The translations under genes and the position numbers were made by a program. 64,000 nucleotides of DNA from positions 29,277-93,276 of the forward strand of contig JAUCBJ010007195.1 in NCBI GenBank assembly GCA_032718475.1. The letters are read 5' to 3'. The DNA comes from Nemertoderma westbladi (taxonomy: Eukaryota; Animalia; Xenacoelomorpha). Within the stretch, counting starts at the first letter, position 1. Each line of letters opens with the position of its first letter. Shown here one piece after another: positions 15,001 to 49,200 of the stretch. The notes beneath the pieces were generated by a model that saw only the letters and a program-made list of their open reading frames with translations, did no database searches and had not been told where the DNA came from.

Positions 15001-15305
15001 TAACTAACCTTACTCTAACTATAACACACAAACTAACCTTTACTCTAACTATAACACACAAACTAACCTTTACTCTAACTATAACACACAAACTAACCTT
15101 TACTCTAACTATAACACACAAACTAACCTTTACTCTAACTATAACACACAAACTAACCTTTACTCTAACTATAACACACAAACTAACCTTAATTCTAACT
15201 ATAACACACAAACTAACCTTAATTCTAACTGTAACACACAAACTAACCTTAATTCTAACTATAACACACAAACTAACCTTAATTCTAACTATAACACACA
15301 AACTA
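1..15305. repeat. 30-bp tandem satellite (ttaattctaactataacacacaaactaacc), ~510 units, running off the window start; intronic in the FN3 gene
   Basis: Directly visible 30-bp periodicity with variants ttaattct/tttactct/ttaatttt/gtaattct and occasional 1-nt indels. Confidence 0.98.
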
Positions 15306-25200: not shown

Positions 25201-28200
25201 GGAAATGACGTTGTCTACGCGGAGCTTCCGCTTACGGGGCCTAGGCGGGCCGACCGCTGGGGCGGCCTGGGGAGCTAACCCGTCGGTTTGGGGAGCTAAC
25301 CCGTCGGGTTGGGGAGCTAACCCGTCGGGTTGGGGAGCTAACCCGTCGGGTTGGGGAGCTAACCCGTCGGGTTGGGGAGCTAACCCGTCGTGTTGGGGAC
25401 CTAACCCATCACCTTGGGGACCTAACCCATCGGGTTGGGGAGCTAACCCGTCGGGTTGAGGGGCTAACCCGTCGGGTTGAGGAGCTAACCCATGGGGACC
25501 CATCTCCCCTTGCCCAGGCACATCGGTATCCATAACGACGGGTACGGACTGCTCAACCCCTCCTTCCAGTACAACCGGCCCCTCCCCGGAGACCGCTGTG
25601 AGTCTTGCAGACTCGTTGGCGCCGCGAGAAAGACCCAACGAGCCAGCCAACCCGCGGGGCCCCTCTACGGCGACGTCGGACTCCGAAGTGGCTCCCGGCG
25701 TCGCCAACCGCTTGCGTTTACCGTCGCCGGGGGGGCCGGAGTCTGGGGGGATGGGCCGCTTCCGTCTGCCGGGTTCCCTGGTGGGTGGTCCCTCGGGAAC
25801 CACTCCTGGGGGGCCCTCGTCGGGAACCGGTGCCCCCTCCGTACGGCGGCCCCCTTCCCCCTCCCTACGGCCCCCTTCCCCCTCCATACGGCCCCCTTCC
25901 CCCTCCCTACGGCCCCCTTCCCCCTCCTTACGGCCCCCTTCCCCCTCCTTACTGCCCCCTTCCCCTACCTTACCGCCCCCCTTCCACCCCTCCACCACCG
26001 AATCCCTACTAACCATCTCCTCGTACCCAAACGATGCCAACTGCTGGAGGAACTGTTCCTCTCGTTCCGCAAACGACAGATGTTCGTCGCCGAAGGTCTC
26101 GGGCCCGAACACTGACTCGGGGGCGAGGGCCGGTGGTTCCAGCAGGGTGATGCTCCGTATATCCTGCACGACAGTGCGGTCCGCGGCGTCCGGGCGGGGT
26201 ATCAGCGCGGGTCCGAGGTCCGGAAACCCATCCCCGGAGCCCCGGAGCTGCCGACTCACCTCCCGCAGGAACGGGTCGTTATCCGCGTCGAACAGCATCC
26301 CGAAGGCCGCCTCCAACTCGATGTGGTCGTCCGGTATGTTTATACAATGGCCGCCACCCAACGCATCCGCGTTCAGGTTGACCAGCTGTTGGTCCCGTCT
26401 GGCCGATGTTATCGAGACCATGCGATAAACTCCCTTGCGAGCCTTCAAAGCGTCTTCGTGAAGACGAATCATCTGGTATTCGTAAACCCGAACGATCCCG
26501 CCGTATAGAATAGCAGCTAATCGCAACGACATTTTCCCCTTCGGGCTTAAATTCCCTCTGCTTAACTCCACGTGAATACCCTGGAGGTATTTCAGAACTT
26601 CCACGCAGGAAGTAGAAATGGAACTTTTCAAGAAATTACGAAATATATTCGGTTGTTTGTTCTGAGCCTCTTTGTATGTCAACCGGTGGATTCCGGCGTA
26701 CCAAAATATACCCAGGGGGGTGTGCAACGAACATATCTTATTCTCCCAAAACATTACGTAACTGATCGTATGGCAGTATGGTGAACACAACGCAAAAGTT
26801 TTAACACAAAAATATTAAAGATTAAACAACAAAAACAAATAAACACAAACCAAATAACGTTAACTAAAAAAACTCTAAAGAAAATAACCTATTTAATTCA
26901 AAATTTAACTAGGCCTACCGTAAACCCTTTGATCCAACTCTTAAAATAAAACAGGAGGAAATCCCGATATCGTGTCTGGCCGGGCAAATTGATGGATGCA
27001 AGAAAGTTTCAGTTATGAGTTAAATACATAGGCCAAAGATTACCGGTAGGCCTAGGCCTACCGGTATGCTTGTCCAGATGTCGTTAATAAAGTGAAAGGT
27101 TACATGGATGATAAACGCTTGGATAGAAACAAAACAATAAACAAAAGTCAATAGGTATAGGCCTACTTACATCATGAAGAATCAGGATAAATCTATCGGT
27201 GCCGGTAGCGTCATACTGGCAAATTTAAACAACGAAACGAACGTCTGATAGTTGGAAACTGATAGTAAATTGATAGGTGAATTGTTACCGGTAGCGGTAG
27301 GGCAAGAGGAGCCAGTCGCCATGCGGTACGGGAACGGTAGGCTAGAGTGGATTCGGTAGAATGCCGCATGAGGGGAAATGTGACGACAGATGTTCATGAC
27401 ATAACATAGTAGAAAGATTAAAGTAAAGGGTATTATAGAAAGTAACGTTGAACGATAAATTTAATTCCTTCTTGAGTAAACTCTACAGCGTCAGGCGGTA
27501 GTCCGCCGAATATGAAGCTATTAAGTACGTACTGCCGGTGCCGGTGCGGGGTCTTAAATTATTGCCCATCAAGTAGACATCCCTCATCCTTTCCGCTTCA
27601 TCATATTGTGCGACTCTAATCTCTCTTCACAAAGTTAAATTAGATGTGGTGGAAATAAACTGACCCGCCCTAACCGTAAACTTTATTCTCATCGACAATC
27701 AGTGCGTGCGGCTGTCTCTGCTCAGTCGGAGGGTTGTCTAGTTGGTCATGTAGAAAACTTATGAGTCTAGGTTTCTGAGATCAGCTGACAGCTGATCTCA
27801 TCGTTTACGAAATTTTACCACATTGCCTGCATTACCATTAAGTAAATTATAAGTTTTATACTGTTTTATACTAGGATGCTAGGCGTTGCACGCGGTAGCA
27901 TCTTATGGCCAAAACCTAGCTCTACCCTACAGACCCGAAGGATGACTCACTTGATGGCCTTAGCTATCGTAGAAAAGATCTACCTGTGATTGATCGCGGC
28001 CAACTGGTTGTTGAGAGGAAAGAGGGAGGTTAACCCATGAGATTCCTGAAACCTCCAGTCCAGTACAAGAAGATAATGCAATGGCTGGTCGCACCAAGGA
28101 CAACGAGTATAGTAAATGTTTTGGGTGATTTTGGTAGAAAATTTTATTGTGATCAATAATCCAAATGATAACCGACTTGAATAATTGAGGATTTTGTATA

Positions 28201-31200
28201 AATTGAAATTAAAAAATTGACACCAGCAACTGTTAAGGCAATTCTTCCGATTGCTTCCATATATTATTATACTGTAGTAATTAATTTTCTGTTGAAAATG
28301 ATTACAATTAAACTTACATAACCGGAATCCCCATCTTTATGGCACACTTTTATGACCATTTCATTTCAGTGACACCTCACATATATTTGCTGGAGACGAT
28401 TGTTTGAAATGTAGTTATTGAATGTTTTGGTTGGAAGTATAATTTAATACACACATTGCAATTGTGGAAAGTGTTCGCGGTATTTCAACTTTCCATAACG
28501 CGAGTTGAATATTTTTGTATTTTATTAAAATTGATTATTCCGATATTACTACTGGGTGCGGGACCATGGGTTTTGGGCACATTCAATAAACTGGGGGCGA
28601 TTTATGGGCGAACTTTGGGGCAACTTACAGGGTACGGGAATAATTTCATAGTTATAAGGGCCAGGGGGGATGGAAAATGCAAGCAGTATTCAGGTTAGCC
28701 TGAGTACTATTAGGCCCTGGCCAACTTCCTGCTGCCTGTAGGGGTGGATTTGGTAATGTGCCAGGCCTAAAGGACAAGGACTGCCCTTAGCGGTCCCTGG
28801 CCAACGGCAGCTACTACGAGCCTGAAAAGGACTCGGAACGCTGACTGCTTGTGTCAGGGATTTGCGACGGGCACCGACGGCCCCTTAGTAGCCAAGCCGT
28901 TCTGGGTCTCGATGATCGAACCCCGGGGTTCGTGAGGGGTGGAGTGGACACGCGAACAGGTGGCCAACTTAAGACTGCCCCCTGACCTAAGCCGTACTGG
29001 TTCTCGATGACCGATCCCTTCGGGGTTCGTGAGGGGTGGGACGGACATGCGAAAGGGCTGGCCACAGGACTGGTTTGACAAGGACTGCCCTTAGCGGTCT
29101 CGGGTCAACTGCGGCTACTACGAGCCTGAAAAGGACTCGGAACGCTGACTGCTTGACTGTGATTTGCGACGGGAACCGACGACAGACCCCTTAGCCAAGC
29201 CGTTCTGGTTCTCGATGATCGTTCCCTTCGGGGTTCGTGAGGGGTGGAACGGACACGCGATGGGGTCGAAAGACAAAGGACTAGACCCGACTAGACTCTA
29301 CTGGCCTACCGACTGTTCGGAGCAGTTTCTCGGCTGCCGAAGCAACTACGAGCCTGAAAAGGACTCGGAAAGCCTAGGTGGTTGGGTTTCTGTGATGAAC
29401 TGACGGACCCCTAGCCAAGCCGTTCTGGTTCTCGATGACCGATCCCTTCCGGGTTCGTGAGGGGTGGAACGGACACGCGAACGGGTCCACCGACACGACA
29501 GACTCCTAGCCAAGCCGTACTGGTTCTCGATGACCGAACCCTTCGGGGTTCGAGAGGGGTGGTACGGATACGCGACAGAGTCTACCGACTGGACCGACCC
29601 TTAGCCAAGCCGTGCTGGTTCTCGATGATCGTTCCCTTCGGGGCTCGTGAGGGGTGGAACGGACACGCGACAGGGTCGACCGACACCGACACTACGGCAC
29701 TAAGACTGGGACTGAGGGAAAATCTGGGGAACATTAGGTAGGCTAAAATTCTGAGCGAACAGCGGGTTATTAAATAATATACCGTAGGGATTTATATTAT
29801 CGTGTATACTTATTGTGAATATTTGGTGTATATTGATTTGGGGAAGCCCAAAATTATTCTTAATCAGGTTTGCAACTATAGGAAGTTACATTAAAGAGTA
29901 TATCCAACTAATGCAGCTTTTCTCAACCGCAAACTTGCATCTTAGAAATATTCCCTCCCCACAATCAATATCCGGTGACTGGCCGGGGCTCGGTGGTCTG
30001 TTAAGTCACGTCTCCAGCATCGGCGTTTTTCCCCTTGGTGTAGGAATAACGGCAACAAAATTAAGAATAATTATATGGTTAATTTTGACCGGGTGTCAAA
30101 ATTAAGAATAATTAACGTGGTTAATTTTGACAGGGTGTCAAAATTAAGAATAATTATCGCGGTCAACTTCAACTGGTGGAAGTTGAGAATCCTTCAATAC
30201 TCTTCAAAAACTCTCTACGTGCTTGCCAGCACCCACTACGAGGAAACTCTGGTATTTGAGTTGAGACAAAGTCGTGGTTTAATTAAACAACAAACTCGAT
30301 CTAACCAACTCGTAGTCGGCAGATCACAATTCGGGAGAGTTGTTAACAGGGAATGGAAGTATCGATCACACCCATTGATATAATTCAAGTTGAGCCAGGA
30401 ATCTGGCACGTCGAAGTTGAGGTACAAGGAACGAACGTTGGACGATTCAGGATTACTGTTCGGGTGGTCCAAGCTGAGTACAATACCTACGAGGAACTGT
30501 TTTACGACATCGCGTATCTCGCCATCGAGGAGGCCTTACAATGACCACAAATAACATATCCGATACCGACGAGATGGATCACCACACAGACTCGGAAGCC
30601 GACGAGGTCCCAAACGTCAAGAACATGACCCGTCGGTTAGGGGCTCTTAAAGGCGGAGTAACCCGAGCGTATCAACGGATGGAGAAACAACTCAAGGGAG
30701 TCAAAACCCCCCTCAATGAGGTACAAACTCAGCTTCAAAGTATCCGAAATATCCTACAGCGGTACGAAAGAATGATACAGGCGTACCAAGAGCTCGTTCC
30801 TCCCACCGATCAGGAAAACTACCCCAAGCTGGAAGAACACGTTGTACATCTAGATGGGTTCCGCAAACAACACCGGAGGACCCTCAGCCTGGTGAGAGGC
30901 TATGAGGAACAGTATTACAAGAGGGCTGAAAGAACAGACGCGGAATCAGTACGATCCTCCAGCATCAGGACAGGAGTACATCACAAGAGAATGGGGTCCA
31001 CCAGAAATCAGCACTCCAGCGCTAGGAGCGAGATATCCGGCTCAGCGCGCAGCTCTCAAGGGGCGCCGCCACTCCGAGACCAACTGAGAGAACGGAAGGC
31101 ATTAGCCCTCAAAGCTCGGATGGAAGATGAGTATATTCAACTGCAAGCCGAGCAAGATGTACTAGCCGCCGAAACACAAAGGCGAGAGGCCGAACAAGCG

Positions 31201-34200
31201 GCCGAACGACAGGCCGAACAACGCGAACAGGAGGCCGAACAACATAGACGAGAGGCCGAACGACAGGCCGAACAACGCAAACAGGAGGCCGAACAACGCA
31301 AACAGGAGGCCGAACAACATAGACGAGAGGCCGAACGGCAGGCCGAACAACATAGAAGAGAGGACGAACGACAGGCCGAACAACGCAAACAGGAGGCCGA
31401 ACAACGCGGACGAGAGGCAGAACGAGAGATCGAACAACGTAAATGGGAAGCGGAAATGCGTAAACAACACGCCGAGGCCCAAGCAATTCTCATCCACAAA
31501 AAGAATGCGGATATTGCAAAACTCGCAGAATACGAAGCCGCACTTATCGAACGAGATATTCAACTCTACGAGGACTGGGAAAGGGATATAGATCAGGAAT
31601 ATGAACCAATTCCGGTACCGGAGTTAGAAAAGTCATTTACACCAACAGCGGCGAAACCTCCGAAACCCGAGATTCCGCCTACCAAACAGTCTACGCTATC
31701 GGCACAAGCCCCGGTGTTCCATCCCCCACCGGCTACGCTAAAGAATGAGGAACCCTATTTCCCATCCAACACCACGACAGCGAGTGTACCCAAGTACGAG
31801 CCTGAAAAGGACTCGGAACGGGACGCCACTCCCCGATCAAACAACCCATTTACATCAACACCACAAACTCGCAGCCGCGTCATTATTAAAACTCCACCTA
31901 CTATTGATCCATCAAGTATGGGAGTGAGTGCCAATAACTATAACCCTCCGAGTCACTCTAGTTCAGACAACGTCAGCATCATCCGGGCGTTGGAGAACCG
32001 CCTTGCCATGCCAAAGATGGAGATTCGCACCTTCGAAGGAGATCCCGTCGATTACCTCAGATTCAAGAAACGGTTCTTTGCGCAGATCGGATCAACGGAC
32101 ATAGCCGACGCACAGAAATTGGTATATTTATCGCAATACCTGGGTGACAAGCCACGCAGAATTGTTGCATGTTTTGAGGGAGGTTCTCATGAGGCATACT
32201 ATGACGCATGGAAAACTCTAGATAAAAGATACGGAAATACCGGAACTATAATTAATAAAACTCTAGAGAAACTGATACAAGACGCGGGATCACTAGGGGA
32301 CCCACAGAACCTCCAGGAATTCTCAGATTCCATGAAGGATGCCTACTACACTCTGAAACCCTTAAATAAGGAGGACCAGGTGAACAACATTCTAAACCTC
32401 CGACAGATCGCCCGGAAGTTCCCCGGATGGCTGCAAAGTAAGTGGGCCTATAAATGCGTAGATCTCCGGCGCAGACATCCAGATCAAGATCCCAGCTTCC
32501 TCGAAATGTCGGCATTCCTGGACGATATCTCCGAAGCCATGAATGACTCGATGTTCTCGAAACAAAGTCTCGCCAAGTTGGACGCAATGGAGAGCAATTA
32601 CCAGAGCAGGGCACCCACTCCAAACCCAAGATTCCGCCCTACTCCTGTGAGTGCGATGGCCATCAGTATGGCTGAGGACTCGGATGACGAGGATTACGAG
32701 GAACCGACCTCAGCAGAAGAATGGGCATGCTACCTAGCGAATTGGGCACCCGAAAGGGAAGGCACCACAGCCTCCCCTATATGTCTCTTCTGTGGGGAGA
32801 AACACAAAGTGGAATTCTGCAGAAAGTTTCAGTTCGCCGAACTCGTCCCACGCTTCGAGGCGATAATGAAACACCGAGGATGCTTCCGGTGTCTTGGAAC
32901 AGGTCACTATGTTCGGGAGTGCGACCAAAGATCATGCTGTACTGTCTGTAACGACCAACGCCATCACACGCTCCTCCATATCCCCGCGAACTTCGATTTT
33001 ACTACCCTCCCCTTTCGGATCGAAGCCAGGCGAAGAGGAGAAACAAACCACATCTTCAAAGGAACCCGGACAACCCAACGGAGAGAAACCAACCCGTTTA
33101 AGATCTCCACCAATACACCACAAGTAACCAATATTTCGGCCACGATTAATCTTATAAATCGCCGCTACATGGTTTTCGCAAAGGTAATCCCAGTGAGGAT
33201 CCAAGGAGTCGGCAAATCTTTGACGACACTCGCGTTCCTCGATAACGGGTCTGACGGAACCATCATCGACCGGGATTTCCTCGAGCAACTCGGCCTAGAA
33301 TATGAACCTTGTAAACGGCCCATACAAACCATCACCGATAACAGAGAGGTAGAGTCTGGGGAGGTGCAACTCCAGATGGAAGGAGTGATGAAGGGCTACG
33401 AAACGGCTAAGTTAACCATAAAGAACGCCTTGGTACACACAGACCTCCGGGTGCGGTTCCGACAATCAGCCGAGTACGCCCCCCTCATACAATTGGACCG
33501 GGACGATGTAGACCTGAGGTGTCCGCAGTTGGACGTAAACCGTATCACCCTACTGATCGGACTTGATACACCGGAACTACACATCCCCACAGGAGATATC
33601 GCCCGATCTATAAACCAGGATGACGGATTTTATGCTGAACGAACAATAATGGGATGGACACTCTGCGGCATTAAGGAGGAAACTACGGACACCTATACCT
33701 ACCTTCCTAAATGTCAGATTAAAGAGAATGTAACCTCTGTGGGTTATTGCTCAGTTTCGGATCTTGACGAGGATTTGTTTCTGGAAACAGAGAAAACCCA
33801 ACGAGAGATGACGAAATATTTTAATTTGGAGACCCAAGAGTTCGCGGAAAAGGACGAAAACCCATCCGAAGAGGACCAATATTGTATGGACGTTCTCGAC
33901 CAGGCCACGTTTAAAGACGGACATTGGCGCGTACCCATGCTTTGGTGGATAATAAGGTTATTGATGATAATAATGATGTTGATAACATTGACACCATTAA
34001 TTGGAGAGCACGGACTAATCTGCCGTAATACCCGGATGGCGAACGCCTCAGTTGAGTCCCTCACTCCTAACCACTTACTGGGGAGACCCAAAACCCACCT
34101 CCTCCCGGAAACCATGTTCCCGGATCCCAACGAGATCGCGAAACATACAAACTGGAAAAAGGCCCAAGCGTTGGCAGCGCATTGGTGGAGGATTTGGGCC

Positions 34201-37200
34201 CAGGAATATCTCATAACCCTCCGGACCAGGAGGAAATGGAACAACACCCACCGGAACGTCGCAGTTGGCGACATGGTACTAGTTAGAGAAGATCTCAAAG
34301 ACCGCGTTCACTGGCCTGTGGCGCGGGTCGTGACCATACACCCAAGCAAAGACGGACTTGCGAGGACTGTGACGATACGAACGAAAGCGGGCCACTACCA
34401 ACGCCCCATCCAGAAGCTGTGCCTTCTTGAAGGCAATGACAGTGGTGATTCTACAAGAGGTGATAAGTTCCCTACGGATCCTGCTGCAGACATTGGTGAC
34501 AATTATAAATGCGTTTAAACCCTTTCTCATCATGTTGACAAACTCTTATTAACTGTGATTTATCGACAATGAGTTATGGACCCCCCTTAAACCAACTGTA
34601 ACCACGCAATGGTATTTGTGTTTCCTCGTGTGTTATGTGGAGTCCAGCATCACCCTGCAGATGTTTCGACTGACGCAGGGTCGTTTATGCATTGTTTACC
34701 CTGATTTTGGTCATCAGGACCTACGATATTGGATTATTGGAAATGGAAAAGATTTGAAGTGGAATTCATTGTATTCATTGCAGTATGTTATGTTGTCCGT
34801 TGCGTGCGCAGTTCGGGGCGTAGGCGGTGTAACGAGTCCAGCTGTAGATCCCGGATTGCCGCGCAACACCCCCTCTATCCCGTTATTCTGGTGGGTCCAT
34901 GGTGCATCCACATGACTTCGACGATAGAGGGTTTTATGTTTCTCAGTCGCGTTATTCTGGTGGGACCGTTGCGTGGATTTTGGGGCGTAGGCGGTGTAAC
35001 GAGTCCAGCTGTAGATCCCAGAATGTTGCGTAACCCCATCCCACATGACTTCGTCGACTGAGCTTTATGTTGTTGGGAGTGTTATTCTGGTGGGTCCCTG
35101 GTGCACCCACGTGACTTCACTCCTAGCGTCTTCATTGTCCGTTACGTGCGCAGTTTGGGGCGTAGGCGGTGTAACGAGTCCAGCTGTAGATCCCAGATTG
35201 CCGCGTAACACCCCTTCCACGACAAAGATTAACCAAAGAAAATGATTCAATATAGTTGGAAATGATGAAAAGGATCAGACAACTCTGCTATAAACCTGAA
35301 TGATGACGCGTATACTGATGAAAATGAAATGATGCGCACCCTGGTGCTGCGCTTATAACAATGATGATAGCCGGGGGGCTATAAACCCAATGATGATGTG
35401 GAAATAAATAAATGTGAAATAAATGGTGGAACTAAATGTGTTGAAATATGTGGAAATAAATGAAATGAGATGAAATAATAATGAAATGAAAAAAGACAAA
35501 AAAAAGGTATAAAAGAGGTCAAAGAAAAGAATTGGAAAAAAAAGGACAAAAAAGTCATAAAAAACTGGTTGGATATTATGTATAGCTATAGTAACTGTAA
35601 ATGCTGAATGTATTAGCAATAAGATGATAGATGCCTATATAGCAATGTTATTGAATAAACTGAATTAAATAAAAAACTGAATTATTCTGCTATCGCTATA
35701 GTTTCAGACTTTCTGGACTTATAATTAACTGAACTAATTTGTAACGGATATAATCGTAAATATGGACCCAAATCGCCAAATTATCGGCGAATTACGTAAC
35801 ACGGTAGATCTACTGGAATATTCGCAACCCGGATCCCCTGACTTTGATACAAATTGGAACATTCTGCTAAATGAGAACGTACGAGAAATTAAATTCACCG
35901 GGCGTGAGGGACCGGATTCTAAGAATCTACGAGCCCTCCGGTTAGCCGATGCTACTACGAGCCTGAAAAGGACTCGGAACGCAAAGGCAACCGGAGGGGA
36001 CGATTCGTCGTTTTGGGAAACGTTCCGGCAGAGCGTCTACAGATCCCGATGTTTGATCTACGACAACGAGGGAAACGCGACGCCCACCTCGAAGGCGATT
36101 ACGTTGGCGAGATGTCAGAGCTTCGTCGACGACAAGAGTACGTACCTCGCCCACTGGGGAAACCTGTCGGAGTGTACGGCGACGCTTCGAGAGGAACGCG
36201 TATCGATTATACAAAACCGCGACGACTACCAGGAAAAGTACGGGGCGAAAGAATACGGTCGATCCTTAGTCGTCGTCCTCGGAACCCTGGACGGTTTGGT
36301 ACTGGTGTGCCGAATATTCCCGACACCCAGACATGAAGTGCAGGCAGCCGGAGCGATCTGGTTGCTGCCTACGGATATCCAAAAGATCCTCTTCGACTTC
36401 GACGTCATTAAAATCGGGTCGGATATCAAGGCGGACGTCCGGAACGATTACGCGAACGCTCCCGCAGGAAGAAACCGACGAAACGACCTCAACGCACTTA
36501 GCCATTGCATCGATACTCAAACGCTGCTAGCCTGGTTACGATTCGCCGAGTTCATGCGAGGATTCCAAGAAGTGAGACCGACGAAATCCGGGATCGGCTA
36601 CCTCGCTGTGCTCAACGGCGGTATCGACTTCAAACCCCAGAAATTCCGGGACTATAATAAAATATACGGCGGATACCCGGGATTAGAGATAAAGAGCGAG
36701 CGAGAGGGTCGATGGAAGGACGTCGATCGGAAGTGGACGATACACCAAAGGTGGGAGAATCCCGATCGACGGAGCTATATCTACGTCGTTATGGAATGCT
36801 ACACCGTCGCTAAGTTTATCTGCAAGACTCTAGATAACCTCATCAAGGCGGTCCCCCTTTCCTTCGTCGACTACGACTGGAACGAGGTTATAAACCACGC
36901 GTTTAAAGCGGTCGAGAACATTACACCGGGAGAATCAAAAACGCCCGCCGTTATCGATTCCTGGGACGAGAGCGGACCTTACGACATCCCTACGATTACC
37001 GAACTTCTCGGTGCGGAGGAGCCTCTGATCTCCTCGGAAGGGGAAGAGATATGGCTAAACGAGGGTGTTCTACTCTCCACCCCGAAGCGACAACTCGAAC
37101 CGGAGGCCGCGTATGGACCGGCCGCCAAACGGGTTGCCTCGGCCGAACCGATAAAGAGAGCAGGCGTCTACACCCCACGCGGCTCCGGTAGCCCCGCGAG

Positions 37201-40200
37201 AGAGGTAGCCACTACGGCTGCATTGAGCGACTTCGGCGACATATGCCAACGGTTATCCCCGTATCCTTTCCCGGGTGGCGAAGATTGGTCGTCGGAGATC
37301 CCGAGTACCAGCCACCAACGGACCCGCTCAGCGATACTGGTCGAGGAGGGACCCAGCGATGCGCCGACACCCGATGATCTCCTCGGTATCCCTACGTCGA
37401 AAACCCCGGCACCTCTTCGCCGACCAGCGGTAGCTACTACACCCGCCGTTCCTCAGGACCCTATGCGACTAACCCGTTGGTACGCCGAGCAAACTGAATG
37501 GATCCACCGCCAGAAACGGTCGTCCGAGTTGAGACCATCGGGACATAAAGAGGGTTATCGGAGCGAAAACATACTACGCAAGAGCCCAGCATTCCGCGGG
37601 CTACCGATCACCGAGAATATTCCGAAGAGCGACCGACGACTCGAATACTACGCCGGCGTTCCGATTCCGATATTCCCCGGTCGGGAGATGCAGTTGGAGG
37701 TATGCGACGACTGCGGTTCGGAGCAGTGCCCACGCAGCAGAAGGAATCGGGTTACCGATTCTTGCCTCCAGCTCCTTGGGATACTCTATTGCCCATACTG
37801 CGCGATATCGGGCCACGACGTTTCGGTCTGTCCGATCCTTTATAACCTCTGCACCAAGTGCGGTTTCCGTGGACATTCCGCTAGCCCCCGCTGCTATATT
37901 AAATGTCCAACCAAAGACGTTACCGCTATGGGCAATATGGTCATGTTTGAGACATACGCAAACAGCCATTTAAAGACCAAGTTTCGGAGAAACGCTCGGA
38001 ATATCGCGCAGGAGATGGCGTGCGGATATTTCTCCTTCCCGGAACGCCTCCACACGTCGGCCTCGCTACCCTTCCATTACGTGGATCTGCTACTGAGCGC
38101 CGGATTATTCGGTCCATTCGAAGTTATTAGACGATTATATTCGTATAAAGAGGAGTTCGGTGACGGAGAATGGTTCCTAGAGGCACGCAACTCCGAGTTG
38201 GAAAGACGAACCGACATGATCCCGATGCCTTCGAAAGGAAGAGCCGCCAGGAGACAAGCCGAAGCGTTACTCACGATGGATGTTGACGCTCCTCTACCAG
38301 CCATAGCGATCGATGAGAGTCGACGGGCGAAGAGACGGAAGGCGTATCAGAAAAAGAAATAGTGGATTGGGATATTCCAGGAACATTTATCGAACATTTA
38401 TTTTTATACAAACTCTAGGCCAAATTAATTAAAACTATGCAATATTAAATTTGGGATTTTTATATTGGGAATGACCTACGCAAACTCAATCGACCGACAG
38501 ACTTCACGAAGGTCATTGGGGGGGACTGTTCGCGGTATTTCAACTTTCCATAACGCGAGTTGAATATTTTTGTATTTTATTAAAATTGATTATTCCGATA
38601 TTACTACTGGGTGCGGGACCATGGGTTTTGGGCACATTCAATAAACTGGGGGCGATTTATGGGCGAACTTTGGGGCAACTTACAGGGTACGGGAATAATT
38701 TCATAGTTATAAGGGCCAGGGGGGATGGAAAATGCAAGCAGTATTCAGGTTAGCCTGAGTACTATTAGGTCCTGGCCAACTTCCTGCTGCCTGTAGGGGT
38801 GGATTTGGTAATGTGCCAGGCCTAAAGGACAAGGACTGCCCTTAGCGGTCCCTGGCCAACGGCAGCTACTACGAGCCTGAAAAGGACTCGGAACGCTGAC
38901 TGCTTGTGTCAGGGATTTGCGACGGGCACCGACGGCCCCTTAGTAGCCAAGCCGTTCTGGGTCTCGATGATCGAACCCCGGGGTTCGTGAGGGGTGGAGC
39001 GGACACGCGAACAGGTGGCCAACTTAAGACTGCCCCCTGACCTAAGCCGTACTGGTTCTCGATGACCGATCCCTTCGGGGTTCGTGAGGGGTGGGACGGA
39101 CATGCGAAAGGGCTGGCCACAGGACTGGTTTGACAAGGACTGCCCTTAGCGGTCTCGGGTCAACTGCGGCTACTACGAGCCTGAAAAGGACTCGGAACGC
39201 TGACTGCTTGACTGTGATTTGCGACGGGAACCGACGACAGACCCCTTAGCCAAGCCGTTCTGGTTCTCGATGATCGTTCCCTTCGGGGTTCGTGAGGGGT
39301 GGAACGGACACGCGATGGGGTCGAAAGACAAAGGACTAGACCCGACTAGACTCTACTGGCCTACCGACTGTTCGGAGCAGTTTCTCGGCTGCCGAAGCAA
39401 CTACGAGCCTGAAAAGGACTCGGAAAGCCTAGGTGGTTGGGTTTCTGTGATGAACTGACGGACCCCTAGCCAAGCCGTTCTGGTTCTCGATGACCGATCC
39501 CTTCCGGGTTCGTGAGGGGTGGAACGGACACGCGAACGGGTCCACCGACACGACAGACTCCTAGCCAAGCCGTACTGGTTCTCGATGACCGAACCCTTCG
39601 GGGTTCGAGAGGGGTGGTACGGATACGCGACAGAGTCTACCGACTGGACCGACCCTTAGCCAAGCCGTGCTGGTTCTCGATGATCGTTCCCTTCGGGGCT
39701 CGTGAGGGGTGGAACGGACACGCGACAGGGTCGACCGACACCGACACTACGGCACTAAGACTGGGACTGAGGGAAAATCTGGGGAACATTAGGTAGGCTA
39801 AAATTCTGAGCGAACAGCGGGTTATTAAATAATATACCGTAGGGATTTATATTATCGTGTATACTTATTGTGAATATTTGGTGTATATTGATTTGGGGAA
39901 GCCCAAAATTATTCTTAATCAGGTTTGCAACTATAGGAAGTTACATTAAAGAGTATATCCAACTAATGCAGCTTTTCTCAACCGCAAACTTGCATCTTAG
40001 AAATATTCCCTCCCCACAATCAATATCCGGTGACTGGCCGGGGCTCGGTGGTCTGTTAAGTCACGTCTCCAGCATCGGCGTTTTTCCCCTTGGTGTAGGA
40101 ATAACGGCAACAGAAAGGTTTTTCAATTATATTAAGATACTGGTACAACTAGGAATTTAAGATTGATATTGATGTAATGGTATGTTATTTAATTAATTTT

Positions 40201-43200
40201 AAAAATTAATTTAACTGTAGAAACCTTCATTAGTGTTACGATAGAGCAAACTTTATCACTTATTGACACCGGGGCCCTCTTCCATTTAGAATTATAGTCA
40301 GTAAAAATGGGGGATCAAAAATCGCATTGTTTTTGAATTTTTAAATTCATGATACGGTAAGAATTGGGCCTCAAAATCCTCAATGATGTCAGTTGGGCGC
40401 TCTCTAGCGCCCATGTGAAGAATACCAGGATTTCCGCCCATGTGAAGAATACCAGGATTTCACTTTTCGGTCGACGGAATTATAATATATGACGATTTTT
40501 TATTTTCTTAAATTAACCTTTATTAAGTGTTTTTTAGCGCTTATTTCTGTCTTATAACCTGTACATATACTAATTCGTTTATTGTTTTGGTTAGATTCAG
40601 CCCTTCTGTAACCTGTGTTTTTAGTGAAAACCTGGTATTCTTCACATGGGGGTAACAGCAAAGTGAAATATAACGGCAGAAAGTCTGGTATTCTTCGCAT
40701 GGGCCCAGTTGGGCATTATTGGTCGGATTATTGCTGACAACCGTACTACATACATACCCAAAGGAGTCGAATATTTGTTTCATACACAGGATTTCTGTTG
40801 CTACTCGAACGACTGCCAGTACAGTGTAACCAAACATTGTTAGTATAGCAGTATAGTGTAACCAATGAAAGAGCTGCCTTCTAATCTGTTTGTTCGGAGG
40901 GAAATTCAAGAGGAATTTAGAAACACCAAAAATGTGTTTTAACTCAGTCTGTTCTGGGTGTCAGTTGTCTGGTTGACAGGGTGTTGATGGGGATGCCTGG
41001 TGGTTTTTATATTGCTCTTTGGTCGTGGACTTACTTATCTTGGTACCGGTAGCGGACATCTATACTAAGAAAAAAAGCGAGGATTTCATGTCCTCTTACT
41101 AGGGCATTCCTATGTTTGTGTTAGTAGAGACCCACATTTTTGATAGCGTGCTGAGCTGATGCAATTAGTCTGCCACTCTGCCAGCAGCTTTACATGTGGT
41201 GTGGTTTGCAGTTGGCGTGGTAATGTCACGATTGTGTTTTTGGTGAGTGGAAGGGGAAGTAGTACCGTCAATATGAAATGGGAAGTAGAATAGGCATAAA
41301 TCACATTCATAATATATGATAAACCAGTTGCGAAGTACCGGCAGTAGCAGTCCGGTGCGGTAGGCAGGTACCGTATGTGGGTATGTAGTTCAAGAACATG
41401 ATATGCTCACTCGTTTAATTGACCGGTATAATTAATGGATTTCATAGCTGATCTCTTTATAAAATATCGAAGAAAACGCGACTATCTAGAAGACAAGTGT
41501 TCCTCGTCCATTAACTCTTTGTACTCAAAGATAATTCCAGAGGATTCCGATAACATAGGAGAGATATATCGGCACCATACATCCCGTGCGATACAATATT
41601 TAAACCCTTCCTGGGCACAGGAAACAGTTCCCCGACCAACTATTACAAACATAAGTGAGCAGTTAAGTCGAGCTAAACAGACCCGCGTATATGAGACGGC
41701 AACCCAACCCCAATTCATTACGGGATTCCTCAGCGTTTTCTTCCTCACATATTACAAGAAACATTTTCGCGTCCAAACCTTTGCGAGTTTCGGGACGGGC
41801 GTGGCGTTAGGAGCCGTGTTTTACTCAAAGATCATCGTTCGGTCGTACGAGCGGGTCACGTCTTACATAACATTTGGTAACCTGGGAATGGGACCCGATG
41901 ATTACAGGGACGCCTGGAGATACGCAAAGAAAGTAAGAAGTGGAACGCAATAATAAAAATCAGTGAATAAAATATAATTTTTATTTGTAATTATTCGAAA
42001 TAATCGGAGATATTTTTCGCTCGCTCGCTGTAACTTACGTAATAATGTTAAGGAGATTTGTTTTCCCTGTTAGAACTAAACCGATTCGTCATAAATTCAG
42101 TAACTTTAGTAATATAACCGGCCTTTCGACCCAAACTCGTGGTGTTAGTCGTTTTATACCTTTGAAGATTCAATTTCTCGGTGCAGTAGGAAAATTATCC
42201 TTTTCAACCGGTACAAACAAAACCGGAAGTAAGGCGGACAATGCATCCACTCCAGACCCGGACGATGCATCCACCCCAGAACCGGAGGATAACACTGACA
42301 CGGCCGATGACTTTACCGATGATCGCGAGGTTGATGACGATGGAACTATTTACCGGAACCCGACCGGCAACCAGCCCTGGTGGCATCCGTGGCGCAGCGC
42401 CCGCTGGAAGGATTCCGAATGGCCGGAAGATAAACTCCGGCCCCCGGACGCCGAGTTCGACCGACTGCAGGACACCTACACGGAGCTGAACGAGGGAAGC
42501 TGGACGTCCACGGACCCGTTCGACTACAGATGGTTCCAGGAAACGATGAAGAAAGATAAGGTGAGATAGTTGGAGAGAAGTGAGATGGGGTGGTCTGGTC
42601 TGGTCTCGTTGTTTCATAACTTGGTACCGGTAATGAATGTAGTGGAAGTGATTGACACAAATATAATTATCCATCTACTAATAGCCCCTACAAATATTTT
42701 CATATTTTTTGAAATCTGATAATTAAAATTATTAATTGTGCGTGCTGCGTATTAATGTGCGTATTAATACGTCCTGTTATGTACCACCACTCCCTTAGGC
42801 TCACTACAAGTTCTTGATACTACATGCCTATATTAAATGTCCCATTAATAGTATATGTATCTTCTCCATTAGGTTGTTATATTTATAAAAGGAACCCCCA
42901 GCCATCCCCTATGTCGCTTCTCCCATGCCCTTGTCAACGTAATGGACCTACACGGAGTGCCTTATAAGAGTTACGATGTTCTATCTGATTATAAACTCCT
43001 CGAGGGAATTAAACGATATTCTATGTGGCCAACCACTCCAATGGTGAGTCAGATAGGGAGGGAGGTGGGGTGGGTGGCAGATAGGGCGGGAGGTGGGTGG
43101 CAGATAGGGAGGGAGGTGGGTGGCAGATAGGGCGGGAGGTGGGTGGCGGATAGGGAGGGAGGTGGGTGGCGGATAGGGAGGGAGGTGGGTGGCGGATAGG

Positions 43201-46200
43201 GAGGGAGGTGGGTGGCAGATAGGGAGGGAGGTGGGTGGCAGATAGGGAGGGAGGTGGGTGGCAGATAGGGAGGGAGGTGGGTGGCAGATGGGAGGGAGGT
43301 GGGTGGCAGATAGGGCGGGAGGTGGGTGGCAGATAGGGAGGGAGGTGGGTGGCAGATAGGGCGGGAGGTGGGTGGCGGATAGGGAAGGAGGTGGGTGGCG
43401 GATAGGGAGGGAGGTGGGTGGCGGATAGGGAGGGAGGTGGGTGGCAGATAGGGAGGGAGGTGGGTGGCGGATAGGGAGGGAGGTGGGTGGCGGATAGGGA
43501 GGGAGGTGGGTGGCGGATAGGGAGGGAGGTGGGTGGCAGATAGGGAGGAGGTGGGTGGCAGATAGGGAGGGAGGTGGGTGGCAGATGGGGAGGGAGGTGG
43601 GTGGCAGATAGGGATGGAGGTGGGTGGCAGATAGGGATGGAGGTGGGTGGCAGATGGGGAGGGAGGTGGGTGGCAGATAGGGAGGGAGGTGGGTGGCAGA
43701 TAGGGAGGGAGGTGGGTGGCGGATAGGGAGGGAGGTGGGTGGCAGATAGGGAGGGAGGTGGGTGGCAGATAGGGAGGGAGGTGGGTGGCGGATAGGGAGG
43801 GAGGTGGGTGGCAGATAGGGATGGAGGTGGGTGGCAGATAGGGATGGAGGTGGGTGGCAGATAGGGAGGGAGGTGGGTGGCAGATAGGGAGGGAGGTGGG
43901 TGGCAGATAGGGATGGAGGTGGGTGGCAGATAGGGAGGGAGGTGGGTGGCAGATGGGGAGGGAGGTGGGTGGCAGATGGGGAGGGAGGTGGGTGGCAGAT
44001 AGGGAGGGAGGTGGGTGGCAGATAGGGAGGGAGGTGGGTGGCGGATAGGGAGGGAGGTGGGTGGCGGATAGGGATGGAGGTGGGTTGCAGATAGGGAGGG
44101 AGGTGGGTGGCAGATAGGGAGGGAGGTGGGTGGCGGATAGGGAGGGAGGTGGGTGGCAGATAGGGAGGGAGGTGGGTGGCAGATAGGGAGGGAGGTGGGT
44201 GGCGGATAGGGAGGGAGGTGGGTGGCAGATAGGGATGGAGGTGGGTGGCAGATAGGGATGGAGGTGGGTGGCAGATAGGGAGGGAGGTGGGTGGCAGATA
44301 GGGAGGGAGGTGGGTGGCGGATAGGGAGGGAGGTGGGTGGCAGATAGGGATGGAGGTGGGTGGCAGATAGGGAGGGAGGTGGGTGGCAGATGGGGAGGGA
44401 GGTGGGTGGCAGATAGGGAGGGAGGTGGGTGGCAGATAGGGAGGGAGGTGGGTGGCGGATAGGGAGGGAGGTGGGTGGCAGATAGGGAGGGAGGTGGGTG
44501 GCGGATAGGGAGGGAGGTGGGTGGCAGATAGGGATGGAGGTGGGTGGCAGATAGGGAGGGAGGTGGGTGGCAGATGGGGAGGGAGGTGGGTGGCAGATGG
44601 GGAGGGAGGTGGGTGGCAGATAGGGAGGGAGGTGGGTGGCAGATAGGGAGGGAGGTGGGTGGCAGATAGGGAGGGAGGTGGGTGGCGGATAGGGAGGGAG
44701 GTGGGTGGCGGATAGGGATGGAGGTGGGTTGCAGATAGGGAGGGAGGTGGGTGGCAGATAGGGAGGGAGGTGGGTGGCGGATAGGGAGGGAGGTGGGTGG
44801 CAGATAGGGAGGGAGGTGGGTGGCGGATAGGGAGGGAGGTGGGTGGCAGATAGGAATGGAGGTGGGTGGCAGATAGGGATGGAGATGGGTGGCAGATAGG
44901 GAGGGAGGTTGGTGGCAGATAGGGAGGGAGGTGGGTGGCAGATAGGGAGGGATGTGGGTGGCAGATAGGGATGGAGGTGGGTGGCAGATAGGGAGGGAGG
45001 TGGGTGGCAGATAGGGAGGGAGGTGGGTGGCGGATAGGGAGGGAGGTGGGTGGCGGATAGGGAGGGAGGTGGGTGGCGGATAGGGAGGGAGGTGGGTGGC
45101 GGATAGGGAGGGAGGTGGGTGGCAGATAGGGATGGAGGTGGGTGGCAGATAGGGAGGGAGGTGGGTGGCAGATAGGGAGGGAGGTGGGTGGCAGATAGGG
45201 AGGGAGGTGGGTGGCGGATAGGGAGGGAGGTGGGTGGCAGATAGGGAGGGAGGTGGGTGGCAGATAGGGAGGGAGGTGGGTGGCAGATAGGGAGGGAGGT
45301 GGGTGGCAGATAGGGAGGGAGGTGGGTGGCAGATAGGGAGGGAGGTGGGTGGCAGATAGGGAGGGAGTTGGGTGGCAGATAGGGAGGGAGGTGGGTGGCA
45401 GATAGGGAGGGAGGTGGGTGGCGGATAGGGAGGGAGGTGGGTGGCAGATAGGGAGGGAGGTGGGTGGCAGATAGGGAGGGAGGTGGGTGGCAGATAGGGA
45501 GGGAGGTGGGTGGCAGATAGGGAGGGAGGTGGGTGGCGGATAGGGAGGGAGGTGGGTGGCGGATAGGGAGGGAGGTGGGTGGCAGATAGGGAGGGAGGTG
45601 GGGGCAGATAGGGAGGGAGGTGGGTGGCAGATAGGGAGGGAGGTGGGTGGCAGATAGGGATGGAGGTGGGTGGCAGATAGGGAGGGAGGTGGGTGGCAGA
45701 TAGGGAGGGAGTTGGGTGGCAGATAGGGAGGGAGGTGGGTGGCAGATAGGGATGGAGGTGGGTGGCAGATAGGGAGGGAGGTGGGTGGCAGATAGGGAGG
45801 GAGGTTGGTGGCAGATAGGGAGGGAGGTGGGTGGCGGATAGGGAGGGAGGTGGGTGGCAGATAGGGAGGGAGGTGGGTGGCGGATAGGGAGGGAGGTGGG
45901 TGGCGGATAGGGAGGGAGGTGGGTGGCAGATAGGGAGGGAGGTGGGTGGCAGATAGGGAGGGAGGTGGGTGGCAGATAGGGAGGGAGGTGGGTGGCAGAT
46001 AGGGAGGGAGGTGGGTGGCAGATAGGGAGGGAGGTGGGTGGCAGATAGGGAGGGAGGTGGGTGGCAGATAGGGATGGAGGTGGGTGGCAGATAGGGAGGG
46101 AGGTGGGTGGCAGATAGGGATGGAGGTGGGTGACAGATAGGAATGGAGGTGGGTGGCAGATAGGGATGGATGTGGGTGGCAGATAGGGATGGAGGTGGGT

Positions 46201-49200
46201 GGCAGATAGGGAGGGAGGTGGGTGGCGGATAGGGAGGGAGGTGGGTGGTGGATAGGGATGGAGGTGGGTGGCAGCAGATAGGGATGGAGGTGGGTGGCAG
46301 ATAGGGAAGGAGGTGGGTGGCAGATAGGGAGGGAGGTGGGTGGCAGATAGGGAGGGAGGTGGGTGGCAGATAGGGAGGGAGGTGGGTGGCAGATAGGGAT
46401 GGAGGTGGGTGGCAGATAGGGAGGGAGGTGGGTGGCAGATAGGGAGGGAGGTGGGTGGCAGATAGGGAGGGAGGGAGGTGGGTGGCAGATAGGGAGGGAG
46501 GTGGGTGGCAGATAGGGAGGGAGGTGGGTGGCAGATAGGGATGGAGGTGGGTGGCAGATAGGGAGGGAGGTGGGTGGCAGATAGGGAGGGAGGTGAGTGG
46601 CAGATAGGGAGGGAGGGAGGTGGGTGGCAGATAGGGAGGGAGGTGGGTGGCAGATAGGGAGGGAGGTGGGTGGCGGATAGGGAGGGAGGTGGGTGGCAGA
46701 TAGGGAGGGAGGTGGGTGGCAGATAGGGATGGAGGTGGGTGGCAGATAGGGAGGGAGGTGGGTGGCAGATAGGGAGGGAGGTGGGTGGCAGATAGGGATG
46801 GAGGTGGGTGGCAGATAGGGAGGGAGGTGGGTGGCAGATAGGGAGGGAGGTGGGTGGCAGATAGGGATGGAGGTGGGTGGCAGATAGGGAGGGAGGTGGG
46901 TGGCAGATAGGGAGGGAGGTGAGTGGCTCATAACGCAACCAAATGAAACCCTATACAGGGGAAATCGACGCAAATAACAGCTGATTACCCTGAAAAATGA
47001 AACTGTTACCTGTGCTGTTGACTTTAGTTTATTGTTTTGGTTATAGTAACAGTCACTGCAAACTGCTTTCCATTAACTAATATCATTAATTTATTATTAC
47101 CATTGTTATTTCGTCTCAAACTCTGAAATGAATTTCCGTATTGGTAGAGGTAGAGCGACATGTAGTTTGTGCTGTCTGCATCAGCTGTGATGAATGACTT
47201 ACTGTTAGGCCTACCTCAGCATGACCTTAAGTAGAAAACGGTACAATCATAGTGAAATAATAACGTTCTTGATTTCAGCCCGTGATATATATAGCACCCG
47301 ATAGCCCTTCATTGAGTTTACATTATTTCACGGCGTATTTCACGCAGAGTTGAAAATAAAAGTAGTCAATTCAGTTTATTCAGTAGAATGTTTCTATTAA
47401 TCTTCAGGTTTACTTTGACGAAGAGTTTATGGGCGGTTCGGATGAGATCCTGGACCTGCACACGACCTCGGATATCTTTATCGAGCTCACCAAGATCGGT
47501 GTCCGGTCACGGCTGCAAGAGGGCGAGGTTCCTACCGAGTACTTGGAGGAAGAAGATCAGATCGCTAAGAATTAGTGATTAATCACGGCGCCGCGGCTTT
47601 TAGTGAAAGTAAATACGGAACTATTTCGGGACATCGGCAAAACATTGTACTAAAAGCTAACTCATTAATATAAGATTATTTAATTATATTGTTGGACTTG
47701 ATTAATAACATGGTTAATAATGTGGCAGTAGCTGCATAAAAAATAGTCGAAAATAATTACCAAATATTTATTTTCGTTCGGCGTTCGCCAGTGGTTTACT
47801 AATATCAATTCGCGGTTTTCAAATGACCAACAGTAACAACTTTGCTTACCGGTACCGATGTTTCCATAAAATTATACCCAATTCGGTACATTCATTTAGT
47901 CAAAAGTCTGAAATACAATTTGCGAGGGGGGACTCATCAGTTCTCCAGTCTCTCGGTAGACGGAGACTACAACGGTTGGTTAGTGGCGCTCAAAGGCGTC
48001 ATGAACGTGTACATAGATACTAACAAACAACATGTTAATATGACATTGTAAAGATAAACAGTCAGAAATATATGTAAATATGAATAGTTAATATTCAGAG
48101 TATATGAGAATAAAACCATTTGAAACTTACATAAACAGTAAGATGAATAGCGTAGGTGCATTCTGGGTCTAGATGGGTGATTTCTGCCTCAGATACATCA
48201 GGTTGGAATGGTCCATGGGTCACTGGTTTACTGGAATCCTGGTTTTCTGAATAACTTTCATTTATATGGATCAGCTGAAAATATAACCAATACAAATATA
48301 GCAATAAATTATTGTTCTAGCTAATAGTTAAAATGTATTATTTAGTAATGTTTTAAATTCCTAATATTGTGATTTTAATAATGCTAATTGTATGGATGGT
48401 TCCTGATCACGGTCAGGGGTGCCTTTATAGTCAGGAGCTTATTCGAGTAAATTTAATTAAAAAGCCGTAACACATACCTTATAATGGTCCAATTGCACTC
48501 CATGGCCGTAAACTTCTACGGGCGACCAACCAATCCGCAGCGAGTGTCGTTTTGTTGTGGGCAGCCTTCGTAGTTTAGGGGCAATCAACCCCGGCCAATA
48601 GATATCCAGCGTTTCAGATATATGGCTATGTAGTCGCTCATTGGTTGATGCGGCTTGAATTCCAAACATATATCGCTCACAGGGTTGGCCCTAAACGAGG
48701 GGGAGTGGATATAAATGGAAAACTAAAAGCCAAAGAGGCTTAACAGAATTAAAGTAATATCAGAATTACGACATTATTTCCCTGGAGATACTGTGTAATA
48801 TTGTATTTCACTTACATCAGTAAACACGAACGATGTAGCTTCTCTTGGGAGAGTTTCTATAACATTTCCATTAATGTAAACCTTGTATCCTTCTACAACA
48901 GCATCCACTGCGTCAGAAATCGTGTCCCAAGCTAATGTCGCAGATTCCCAAGTAGACGATCTAAAGAGGTCGGAGTATGTAATGATATCTAATGGTGTAA
49001 AAAACAGACACATTCTAAAGGGCGAGACGCAAAATAAATAAATTTAAGTTTTGGTTAAACAAACCTTAGTTGGACTTGTGGTGTGTCCAATGGTGCTGTA
49101 GTCAGCACTGTGAGCTGTTTGGATTTAGCTGTTGCTTGCTGTTGGGCGTCGAGTGACAGCAGTCGTATAAAGTGGTTGGTACCGGGAGTGCAGTCCGCGA

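Follow-up and report, generated by a model that had tools for sequence, protein, structure and literature searches.

Exonuclease domains of the DEDDy type have been described in the third open reading frames (ORF3s) of Juno and Vesta, bdelloid retrotransposons with long terminal repeats (LTRs), and of the Athena/Terminon retroelements, with their residues intact and, in the available part of the account, no demonstrated role (Rodriguez, Kenefick and Arkhipova 2017, PMC5408684); the same account is repeated in two reviews (PMC6431247 and PMC6338049, each in part). LTR retrotransposons are otherwise thought to add little beyond an envelope (env) gene, and the bdelloid exonuclease ORF3 is without a known function. 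A comparable gene is found in a stretch of 64,000 nucleotides of Nemertoderma westbladi DNA (contig JAUCBJ010007195.1, positions 29,277 to 93,276, forward strand; hereafter the window), in which an LTR element of the Bel/Pao superfamily at 28472-40112 carries an extra ORF. In all likelihood this ORF is an ORF3-type Bel/Pao gene which combines an EXD2/Nibbler-like DEDDy domain with three zinc knuckles and has lost the ExoI motif.

The bdelloid ORF3 resembles the window gene in being a separate non-env ORF behind pol, with a DEDDy-type domain, no membrane segment and residence in young elements (PMC5408684, in part). The bdelloid hosts named in the accessible text are the Juno, Vesta, TelKA and Mag lineages and include no Bel/Pao, whereas the window host is Bel/Pao. 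In the bdelloid ORF3 the DEDD tetrad is changed to DEED, and a Cys-His-Cys motif only is present, in two families (same source, in part); in contrast, the window family, compared by description only, has a triple knuckle and a helical domain, tetrads reading DEDD or DEDE, and one copy without ExoI. The word 'exonuclease' was not found in the available portion of the main text of the Bel/Pao survey PMC3118150, and the accessible part of PMC3985635 links no exonuclease to Bel/Pao. A literature search that left Repbase and subscription journals uncovered turned up no Bel/Pao element described with an exonuclease or exonuclease-knuckle ORF, and prior annotation is possible. Exonuclease ORF3s of bdelloid Gypsy-like elements are already known; a Bel/Pao family with an EXD2/Nibbler-like domain and a triple knuckle was not found and is apparently new. 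It would represent a second superfamily with an exonuclease ORF3, here with an RNA-binding module, purifying selection and candidate RNA sites carried by the element itself.

The host element is a young non-autonomous Bel/Pao LTR retrotransposon derivative. Its LTRs differ at 2 of 1586 nucleotides, have TG...CA ends and are flanked on both sides by a 5-bp target-site duplication. ORF1 gives Pfam matches to DUF1759 (E 4.5e-15) and DUF5641 (E 1e-28); against complete relatives (tblastn, BLASTP) its matches are confined to gag/protease and the integrase tail, and it also matches loci carrying Peptidase_A17. No Pfam or tblastn match to reverse transcriptase (RT), RNase H or the integrase core was obtained anywhere in the 64-kb window, and the element is therefore regarded as a non-autonomous derivative. 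The ORF1 frame is continuous through the pol deletion junction near 33950-34050. About 100 nt of AT-rich filler bridges the gap (33946-34050), with the frame kept and Gag-protease fused to the integrase C-terminal domain. With the Belpaoviridae the element shares LTRs, the order Gag-protease, DUF1759, DUF5641, a polypurine tract and the position of a third gene (PMC8742986). In the ICTV profile of the family the third gene is env-like only, the LTRs measure 0.2-1.2 kb and a tRNA primer site is listed (PMC8742986); the window element departs from it in its exonuclease-knuckle third gene, in LTRs of 1.6 kb, in the absence of RT, RNase H and integrase core, and in having no recognisable tRNA primer site.

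An earlier note, made from the letters of the window, had described an intact 866-aa ORF in the env position without membrane features, and this description is confirmed. The frame runs through 866 codons without an internal stop, and open frames in 1000 shuffles of this DNA reached at most 278 codons. It occupies the interval from the gag-pol ORF, which ends at 34518, to the 3' LTR, which starts at 38527. The motifs quoted in that note (KIGSDIKAD, IDTQ, SGIGYL and YVVME) are located at residues 217, 250, 276 and 341. Taken alone, the ORF matches no Pfam family and no PDB sequence. Its most hydrophobic 19-mer, residues 168-186, has a Kyte-Doolittle value of 2.08, a score which by itself could pass for a helix; the stretch aligns with two core exonuclease strands of the relatives and is modelled as two strands, and therefore no transmembrane segment is supported. 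An envelope glycoprotein was rejected, given the lack of a Pfam match, the identity of the lone hydrophobic stretch as an exonuclease beta-hairpin, and the presence of other domains which explain the whole protein.

Relatives were collected with phmmer over 1.84 billion representatives, which yielded 7 proteins at E <=0.001, and in a later search with the zinc-module alignment, which yielded 5 proteins (P0013 and P0018 duplicate loci already found). Word-index protein searches gave 0 matches with the ORF and 1 with an 8-row alignment, the yield of the zinc alignment being the 5 proteins just mentioned. The DEDDy ORFs of Juno, Vesta and Athena came up in none of these protein searches. Of 245 pattern matches in a metagenome scan, 9 were confirmed as loci, and scans of viral contigs confirmed none of 602, 34 and 4 pattern matches. 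Recruitment was mostly through the zinc module (the best stretch in 6 of the 7 phmmer matches, and the basis of the metagenome patterns), and the 9 loci are a small, zinc-biased sample. None of the related proteins bears an informative name.

Six of the 9 metagenome loci have the homologue immediately after a Bel/Pao integrase. At L004, L005, L006 and L007 it is on the same strand and directly 3' of a complete Bel/Pao pol (Peptidase_A17, RVT_1, DUF5641); at the degraded loci L003 and L008 an integrase tail was detected just upstream (tblastn E 3e-4 and 4e-11). The six loci amount to about three lineages, L004/L005 being 99% identical, L006/L007 88% identical in pol and L003/L008 alike; pol is only about 30% identical between the L004/L005 and L006/L007 lineages. 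Locus L001 has no pol, and its homologue is bracketed by diverged direct, LTR-like repeats, while at L002 and L009 the homologous ORF begins at the contig edge. The position behind Bel/Pao pol in six of nine loci identifies the homologues as element genes; an ordinary host gene, the alternative to the transposon-borne accessory gene proposed earlier, was rejected on this distribution (six loci with pol upstream, one between LTR-like repeats, two at a contig edge) and on the Bel/Pao context in the window itself. Between L006 and L007, pN is 0.15-0.20 and pS 0.63-0.77 (proportions of non-synonymous and synonymous differences) over the exonuclease, linker and zinc parts, with 0.20 versus 0.77 in the exonuclease part, where the synonymous rate (dS) is saturated. 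The ratio of non-synonymous to synonymous rates (dN/dS), a check that had been suggested, is 0.10 for the zinc part and 0.08 for pol, and the gene is under purifying selection in this pair. The L004/L005 pair shows 5 non-synonymous and 4 synonymous changes, too few to judge selection. At L001:8070-11133 the exonuclease-knuckle gene stands alone between the diverged repeats with no gag or pol nearby, possibly as an ORF3-only LTR derivative. Gag and pol of L006 and L007 are in the same frame and parted by a single stop codon (L006:3132-3134, L007:1577-1579), which suggests read-through.

By profile and structure comparison, the N-terminal domain of the extra ORF is assigned to the DEDDy/DnaQ-like 3'-5' exonuclease superfamily, as had been proposed. 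A 10-row family profile matches human EXD2 (E 4e-6), the L007 protein scores above the cut-off of Pfam PF01612 (DNA_pol_A_exo1; one of seven ORF3 stretches scanned), and relative P0019 carries a precomputed PF01612 annotation. A leave-one-out profile, built without the window sequence, scores the window ORF at 66.6 bits in a match which begins just past ExoI, and Atlas returned PF01612 clusters at 0.92. When an AlphaFold model of the domain was compared with 48,161 chains by VIA-align, each of the best 50 was a DEDD-fold domain, with Nibbler EXO at the head (Z 6.8, root-mean-square deviation 3.9, 140 aligned) and WRN and At5g06450 next (Z 6.2); 46 of these 50 alignments begin at model residue 67-73, past the ExoI gap. 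This uniform list agrees with the sequence evidence despite the middling Z. EXD2, the WRN exonuclease and Nibbler (Mut-7), all of PF01612, are thus the best profile and structural matches, and their ExoII and ExoIII positions align with those of the window ORF, which differs from them in having no helicase, transmembrane or other partner domain and no ExoI segment. Egalitarian (Z 5.4) and EXD1 (Z 5.1) provide a precedent for a DEDDy fold without catalysis; Egalitarian differs in that its catalytic residues and whole fold are kept (bioRxiv 2025.08.03.668247, in part). No precedent for a domain wholly without the ExoI strand was met in the literature consulted.

Asp108, Glu110, Asp171, Tyr242 and Asp246, the catalytic residues of EXD2 (PMC6648332, in part), served as a guide for assigning the ExoI, ExoII and ExoIII positions. 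Two anchors are separated by 25 residues in the window protein and by 40-57 in nine of nine relatives (44 in the two closest); the gap spans both ExoI columns under two aligner settings, and the ExoI Asp is kept in all nine. The alignment thus indicates that ExoI is missing through an in-frame gap, not by divergence. Acidic residues 154-158 were rejected as a substitute for ExoI, as they align with the start of the preceding helix in relatives and are helical in the model. The ExoIII Asp is replaced by Glu345, and the same Glu occurs in the two closest relatives, P0002 and P0003; as both keep ExoI, the Glu was rejected as a mark of decay and, judged from the alignment, is a subfamily trait. 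In two-metal DEDD chemistry the loss of both ExoI carboxylates abolishes catalysis, and with both columns deleted the window copy is therefore predicted to be a nuclease-dead pseudo-nuclease. The earlier note had called ExoI not obvious, read ExoIII as YVVME and taken this as a hint of a pseudo-nuclease: the absence of ExoI stands and is sharpened to an in-frame deletion of about 15-20 residues, Tyr341-x3-Glu345 is real but its Glu is itself no sign of decay, and the suspicion for this copy is supported by the ExoI gap.

Eleven distinct relatives have a scorable domain. The full acidic tetrad is present in seven of them under both alignments and in L009 under one, and one or more catalytic residues are lost in the remaining three (P0004, P0006 and P0015); these three still have open frames and an undamaged zinc module. 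In P0007 the zinc module is present and the N-terminal part gives no exonuclease score; the P0009 and P0010 clusters are without the domain, perhaps through truncation. A relative at L002:124-2022 combines a degenerate exonuclease with a duplicated zinc-plus-helical module.

The zinc knuckles reported earlier are borne out by ten Cys/His ligands which are invariant in 14 of 14 aligned rows, and by the PDB matches of the whole-family profile, the best being trypanosome RNase D (TbRND) through its knuckles (E 4.4e-5), then Lin28 and the HIV nucleocapsid. Only the second of the three motifs is canonical (CX2CX4HX4C); the first has Cys for His and a longer loop, and the third a 5-residue last spacer. 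The knuckles are joined to the exonuclease by a low-complexity linker of about 280 residues rich in Pro, Ser, Thr and Ala. The helical domain gave no fold match in Foldseek against PDB, nor the zinc model against BFVD (E 0.001); VIA-align of the zinc/helical model reached a best Z of 2.3, a value that is evidence for neither a novel nor a distinct fold. The best Atlas result for this part, DUF8363 at 0.86, is a lead only. TbRND (PDB 7C42) has the same layout, an exonuclease followed by tandem CCHC knuckles, its exonuclease matching at Z 5.1; the likeness is one of layout only, the exonuclease profile scoring 7C42 at E 0.6, far below EXD2. TbRND is a cellular mitochondrial enzyme with four canonical CCHC motifs and a 28-residue linker (PMC7797062, in part), whereas the window ORF has three motifs, a linker some ten times as long, an extra helical domain and no ExoI. 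The shared layout was probably reached independently. The basic C-terminal tail of the window protein is a possible nuclear-localisation or RNA-binding patch.

The element carries three sets of repeats which fold or are predicted to fold as hairpins (A, B and C). The 24-nt core of hairpin A is identical at 28815, 29119, 29347, 31795 (in gag), 35956, 38870, 39174 and 39402, with three sites per LTR (offset +10055 for the 3' LTR copies); its codon phase is 0 in gag and 2 in the extra ORF. The fold is a hairpin capped by GAAA and closed by an internal loop, which we take to resemble a loop E/sarcin-ricin motif, and by an outer helix. Folding z-scores were -2.9 to -3.6 in three of the four copies folded and -1.1 in the fourth, and two-sided changes were seen at 3 of 4 pairs of the outer helix among five copies. 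This pattern points to selection on RNA structure, and hairpin A could be a protein site or part of an undescribed structured RNA. For hairpin B, the z-scores of five copies folded singly were not significant. Rfam gave no credible family for the hairpins over 28300-40300.

As a whole, the reading considered here, that the window copy, predicted to be nuclease-dead, acts as a helper that binds the RNA of its own element, is tentative (probability roughly 0.4). In relatives with an intact domain, single-stranded RNA would be held by the knuckles and its 3' end passed to the two-metal site, in the manner of trypanosome RNase D, and the element RNA would be trimmed or protected. The window copy would retain binding without catalysis and serve the element RNA, with the structured repeats in the LTRs, gag and the extra ORF as candidate binding sites. 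The knuckles of TbRND provide RNA binding to its exonuclease and boost cleavage (PMC7797062, in part), and Egalitarian binds RNA stem-loops through its DEDDy domain without needing catalytic residues (bioRxiv 2025.08.03.668247, in part). Active-looking and dead natural versions would form a matched protein set for asking whether retrotransposons encode RNA-processing or anti-silencing factors. Quite unlikely, as an extension, is that the dead form acts as a Rev-like trans-acting regulator which recognises the conserved loop-E-type hairpin in the LTRs, gag and its own coding sequence, the Bel/Pao gene being a widespread, hitherto undescribed one that toggles between active trimmer and dead binder; if true, a pol-less element would control the export, stability or small-RNA shielding of its own RNA.

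Several observations weigh against the helper reading. The acidic tetrad is kept in 8 of 11 relatives (one alignment-dependent), and catalysis thus matters in most of the family. The domain might simply not fold once a central strand is gone, and its AlphaFold model is weak (mean predicted local distance difference test score 52.9, with residues 21-74 below 50); the best Foldseek match, EXD2, is not significant (E 0.59), and the leading VIA-align Z of 6.8 falls in the range that the tool calls common, values below 8 being middling. The seemingly better conservation of the zinc module is partly due to the relatives having been ascertained through it. In the exonuclease tree none of 9 inner branches is well supported, and independent catalytic losses are therefore not proven; in the zinc tree 2 of 13 are, duplicate P0018 and truncated P0021 having been left out of the tree-building. 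The hairpin A core was not found in any of the nine related loci at up to 5 mismatches, nor were similar repeats seen in L004-L007, the four fuller relatives, whose LTRs lie mostly outside the contigs. Of the earlier suggestion of an RNA-binding adaptor for the element's hairpins, the hairpins are real and the tie to the ORF product is circumstantial.

Two other explanations come next, each of them unlikely. In the first, which takes up the silencing suppressor suggested in the earlier note, the gene would serve counter-defence: intact members would degrade or trim host Piwi-interacting RNAs, small interfering RNAs or double-stranded element RNA, and dead members would sequester them or poison a host EXD/Nibbler-type partner. 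The nearest folds are those of small-RNA pathway proteins (Nibbler EXO Z 6.8 and 6.2, EXD1 Z 5.1), but these rows lie within about 1 Z unit of those for WRN, ISG20 and the proofreading domains of polymerases. TbRND, with the same domain order, trims small guide RNAs (PMC7797062, in part), arenavirus exonucleases suppress innate signalling (PMC7968707, in part), and the EXD2 active site is built across a swapped dimer, which would permit poisoning (PMC6648332, in part). A trans-acting suppressor would also be worth keeping in an element without RT. In the available part of the bdelloid account, however, the DEDDy ORF3 has no clear link to copy number, and the elements that carry it are still covered by small RNAs (PMC5408684).

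In the second, the functional gene would reside in an autonomous parent, the gap would be neutral damage in a non-autonomous derivative, and the window protein would do nothing. Most of pol is gone from this element as well, and a simple motif scan showed no tRNA-like primer site; absence of a core strand is a drastic change, one gap in three would keep the frame by chance, and a young element has had little time to gather stops. Against such decay, the two ORFs together run to 2191 codons with neither stop nor frameshift and cross at least two gaps, ExoII, ExoIII and every invariant zinc ligand are retained, and catalytically degenerate yet open relatives exist. On a rough estimate from the 2 changes in 1586 LTR positions, only a handful of substitutions is expected in 6.6 kb of coding sequence since insertion; with a recent insertion and both ORFs in frame across the gaps, the gaps therefore more likely predate the insertion. 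A gapped form which was inherited rather than damaged after insertion fits better and is favoured, selection on it not being proven. What is most certain about the window copy is more limited: a catalytically dead state is predicted, and the copy may be a passenger.

A role in complementary DNA (cDNA) synthesis, in which the family enzyme would proofread or trim the 3' ends of cDNA ahead of strand transfer or integration, the knuckles would behave as a second nucleocapsid and the window copy would have lost the role with RT, is very improbable: EXD2 and WRN act on DNA, the knuckles resemble retroviral nucleocapsid, nidovirus ExoN proofreads (PMC7968707, in part), and the window element lacks both ExoI and RT while the RT-bearing L004-L007 keep the tetrad, but the extra ORF is separate from gag-pol with no packaging signal known, the pairing of RT loss and ExoI loss amounts to one element plus the pol-less L001 (in which ExoII is lost), too few for a test, and the retention of the ORF in the window element would be unexplained.

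The features of the element and of the extra ORF are summarised in Table 1.

Table 1. Coordinates of the element, its ORFs, predicted protein domains and repeats in the window
Feature	Position	Strand	Basis
Left target-site duplication, 5 bp	28467..28471	.	Identical 5 bp at 40113-40117
5' LTR, 1586 bp, TG...CA	28472..30057	+	2 differences from 3' LTR
Hairpin B array, six ~88-nt copies per LTR	28882..29685	+	Repeat search
ORF1, 1325 aa: Gag (DUF1759, CCHC) and aspartic protease, then integrase C-terminus (DUF5641)	30541..34518	+	Pfam; tblastn/BLASTP against complete relatives
Hairpin C, inter-ORF array of three ~83-nt copies, 38-nt invariant core	34793..35217	+	
Extra ORF (ORF3 type), 866 aa, intronless, env position	35762..38362	+	ORF calls; shuffle control
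Hairpin A core, 24 nt, copy inside extra ORF	35956..35979	+	Repeat search, folding
Predicted DEDDy-type exonuclease domain, ~residues 116-364, without ExoI segment	36107..36853	+	Profile, alignment, structure match
In-frame gap, ~15-20 codons, removing ExoI helix and strand (approximate site)	36233..36256	+	Anchor spacing; two aligner settings
ExoII Asp225, aligned with EXD2 Asp171	36434..36436	+	
ExoIII Tyr341-x3-Glu345	36782..36796	+	Alignment; Tyr-x3-Glu also in P0002 and P0003
Three zinc-knuckle-like motifs, Cys648-Cys711	37703..37894	+	14-row alignment; profile
Conserved helical domain past knuckles, family-specific	37919..38161	+	
Basic C-terminal tail	38321..38359	+	
G-run, polypurine-tract-like, just 5' of 3' LTR	38518..38524	+	
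3' LTR, 1586 bp	38527..40112	+	Paired with 5' LTR

A tRNA-like primer-binding pattern was not found in the 488-nt leader after the 5' LTR by a simple motif scan made without a host tRNA set, and no tRNA genes were detected in the window. Thirteen nucleotides at 30060-30072, starting 2 nt past the 5' LTR, are perfectly complementary to the LTR stretch 29852-29864, which sits about 25 nt behind a TATA-like hexamer; in a post hoc control this complementarity was reached by 1 of 2000 block shuffles. The arrangement resembles self-priming of the Tf1 type, which to our knowledge has not been described from Bel/Pao. The leader also contains 2.6 tandem copies of a 42-nt palindrome-containing unit (30056-30163), beginning in the last LTR bases.

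Outside the element, an intronless ORF of 836 aa for a Rad21/Rec8-like kleisin with 21-nt tandem repeats is located 1.7 kb upstream (24244-26754, minus strand). Two ORFs of 172 and 174 aa without a Pfam match lie downstream on the plus strand (41435-41953 and 42045-42569). The gene-bearing island is flanked by satellite arrays at 1-15305, 18732-21546 and 52022-63798 (30-bp units) and at 43059-46927 (23-bp units).

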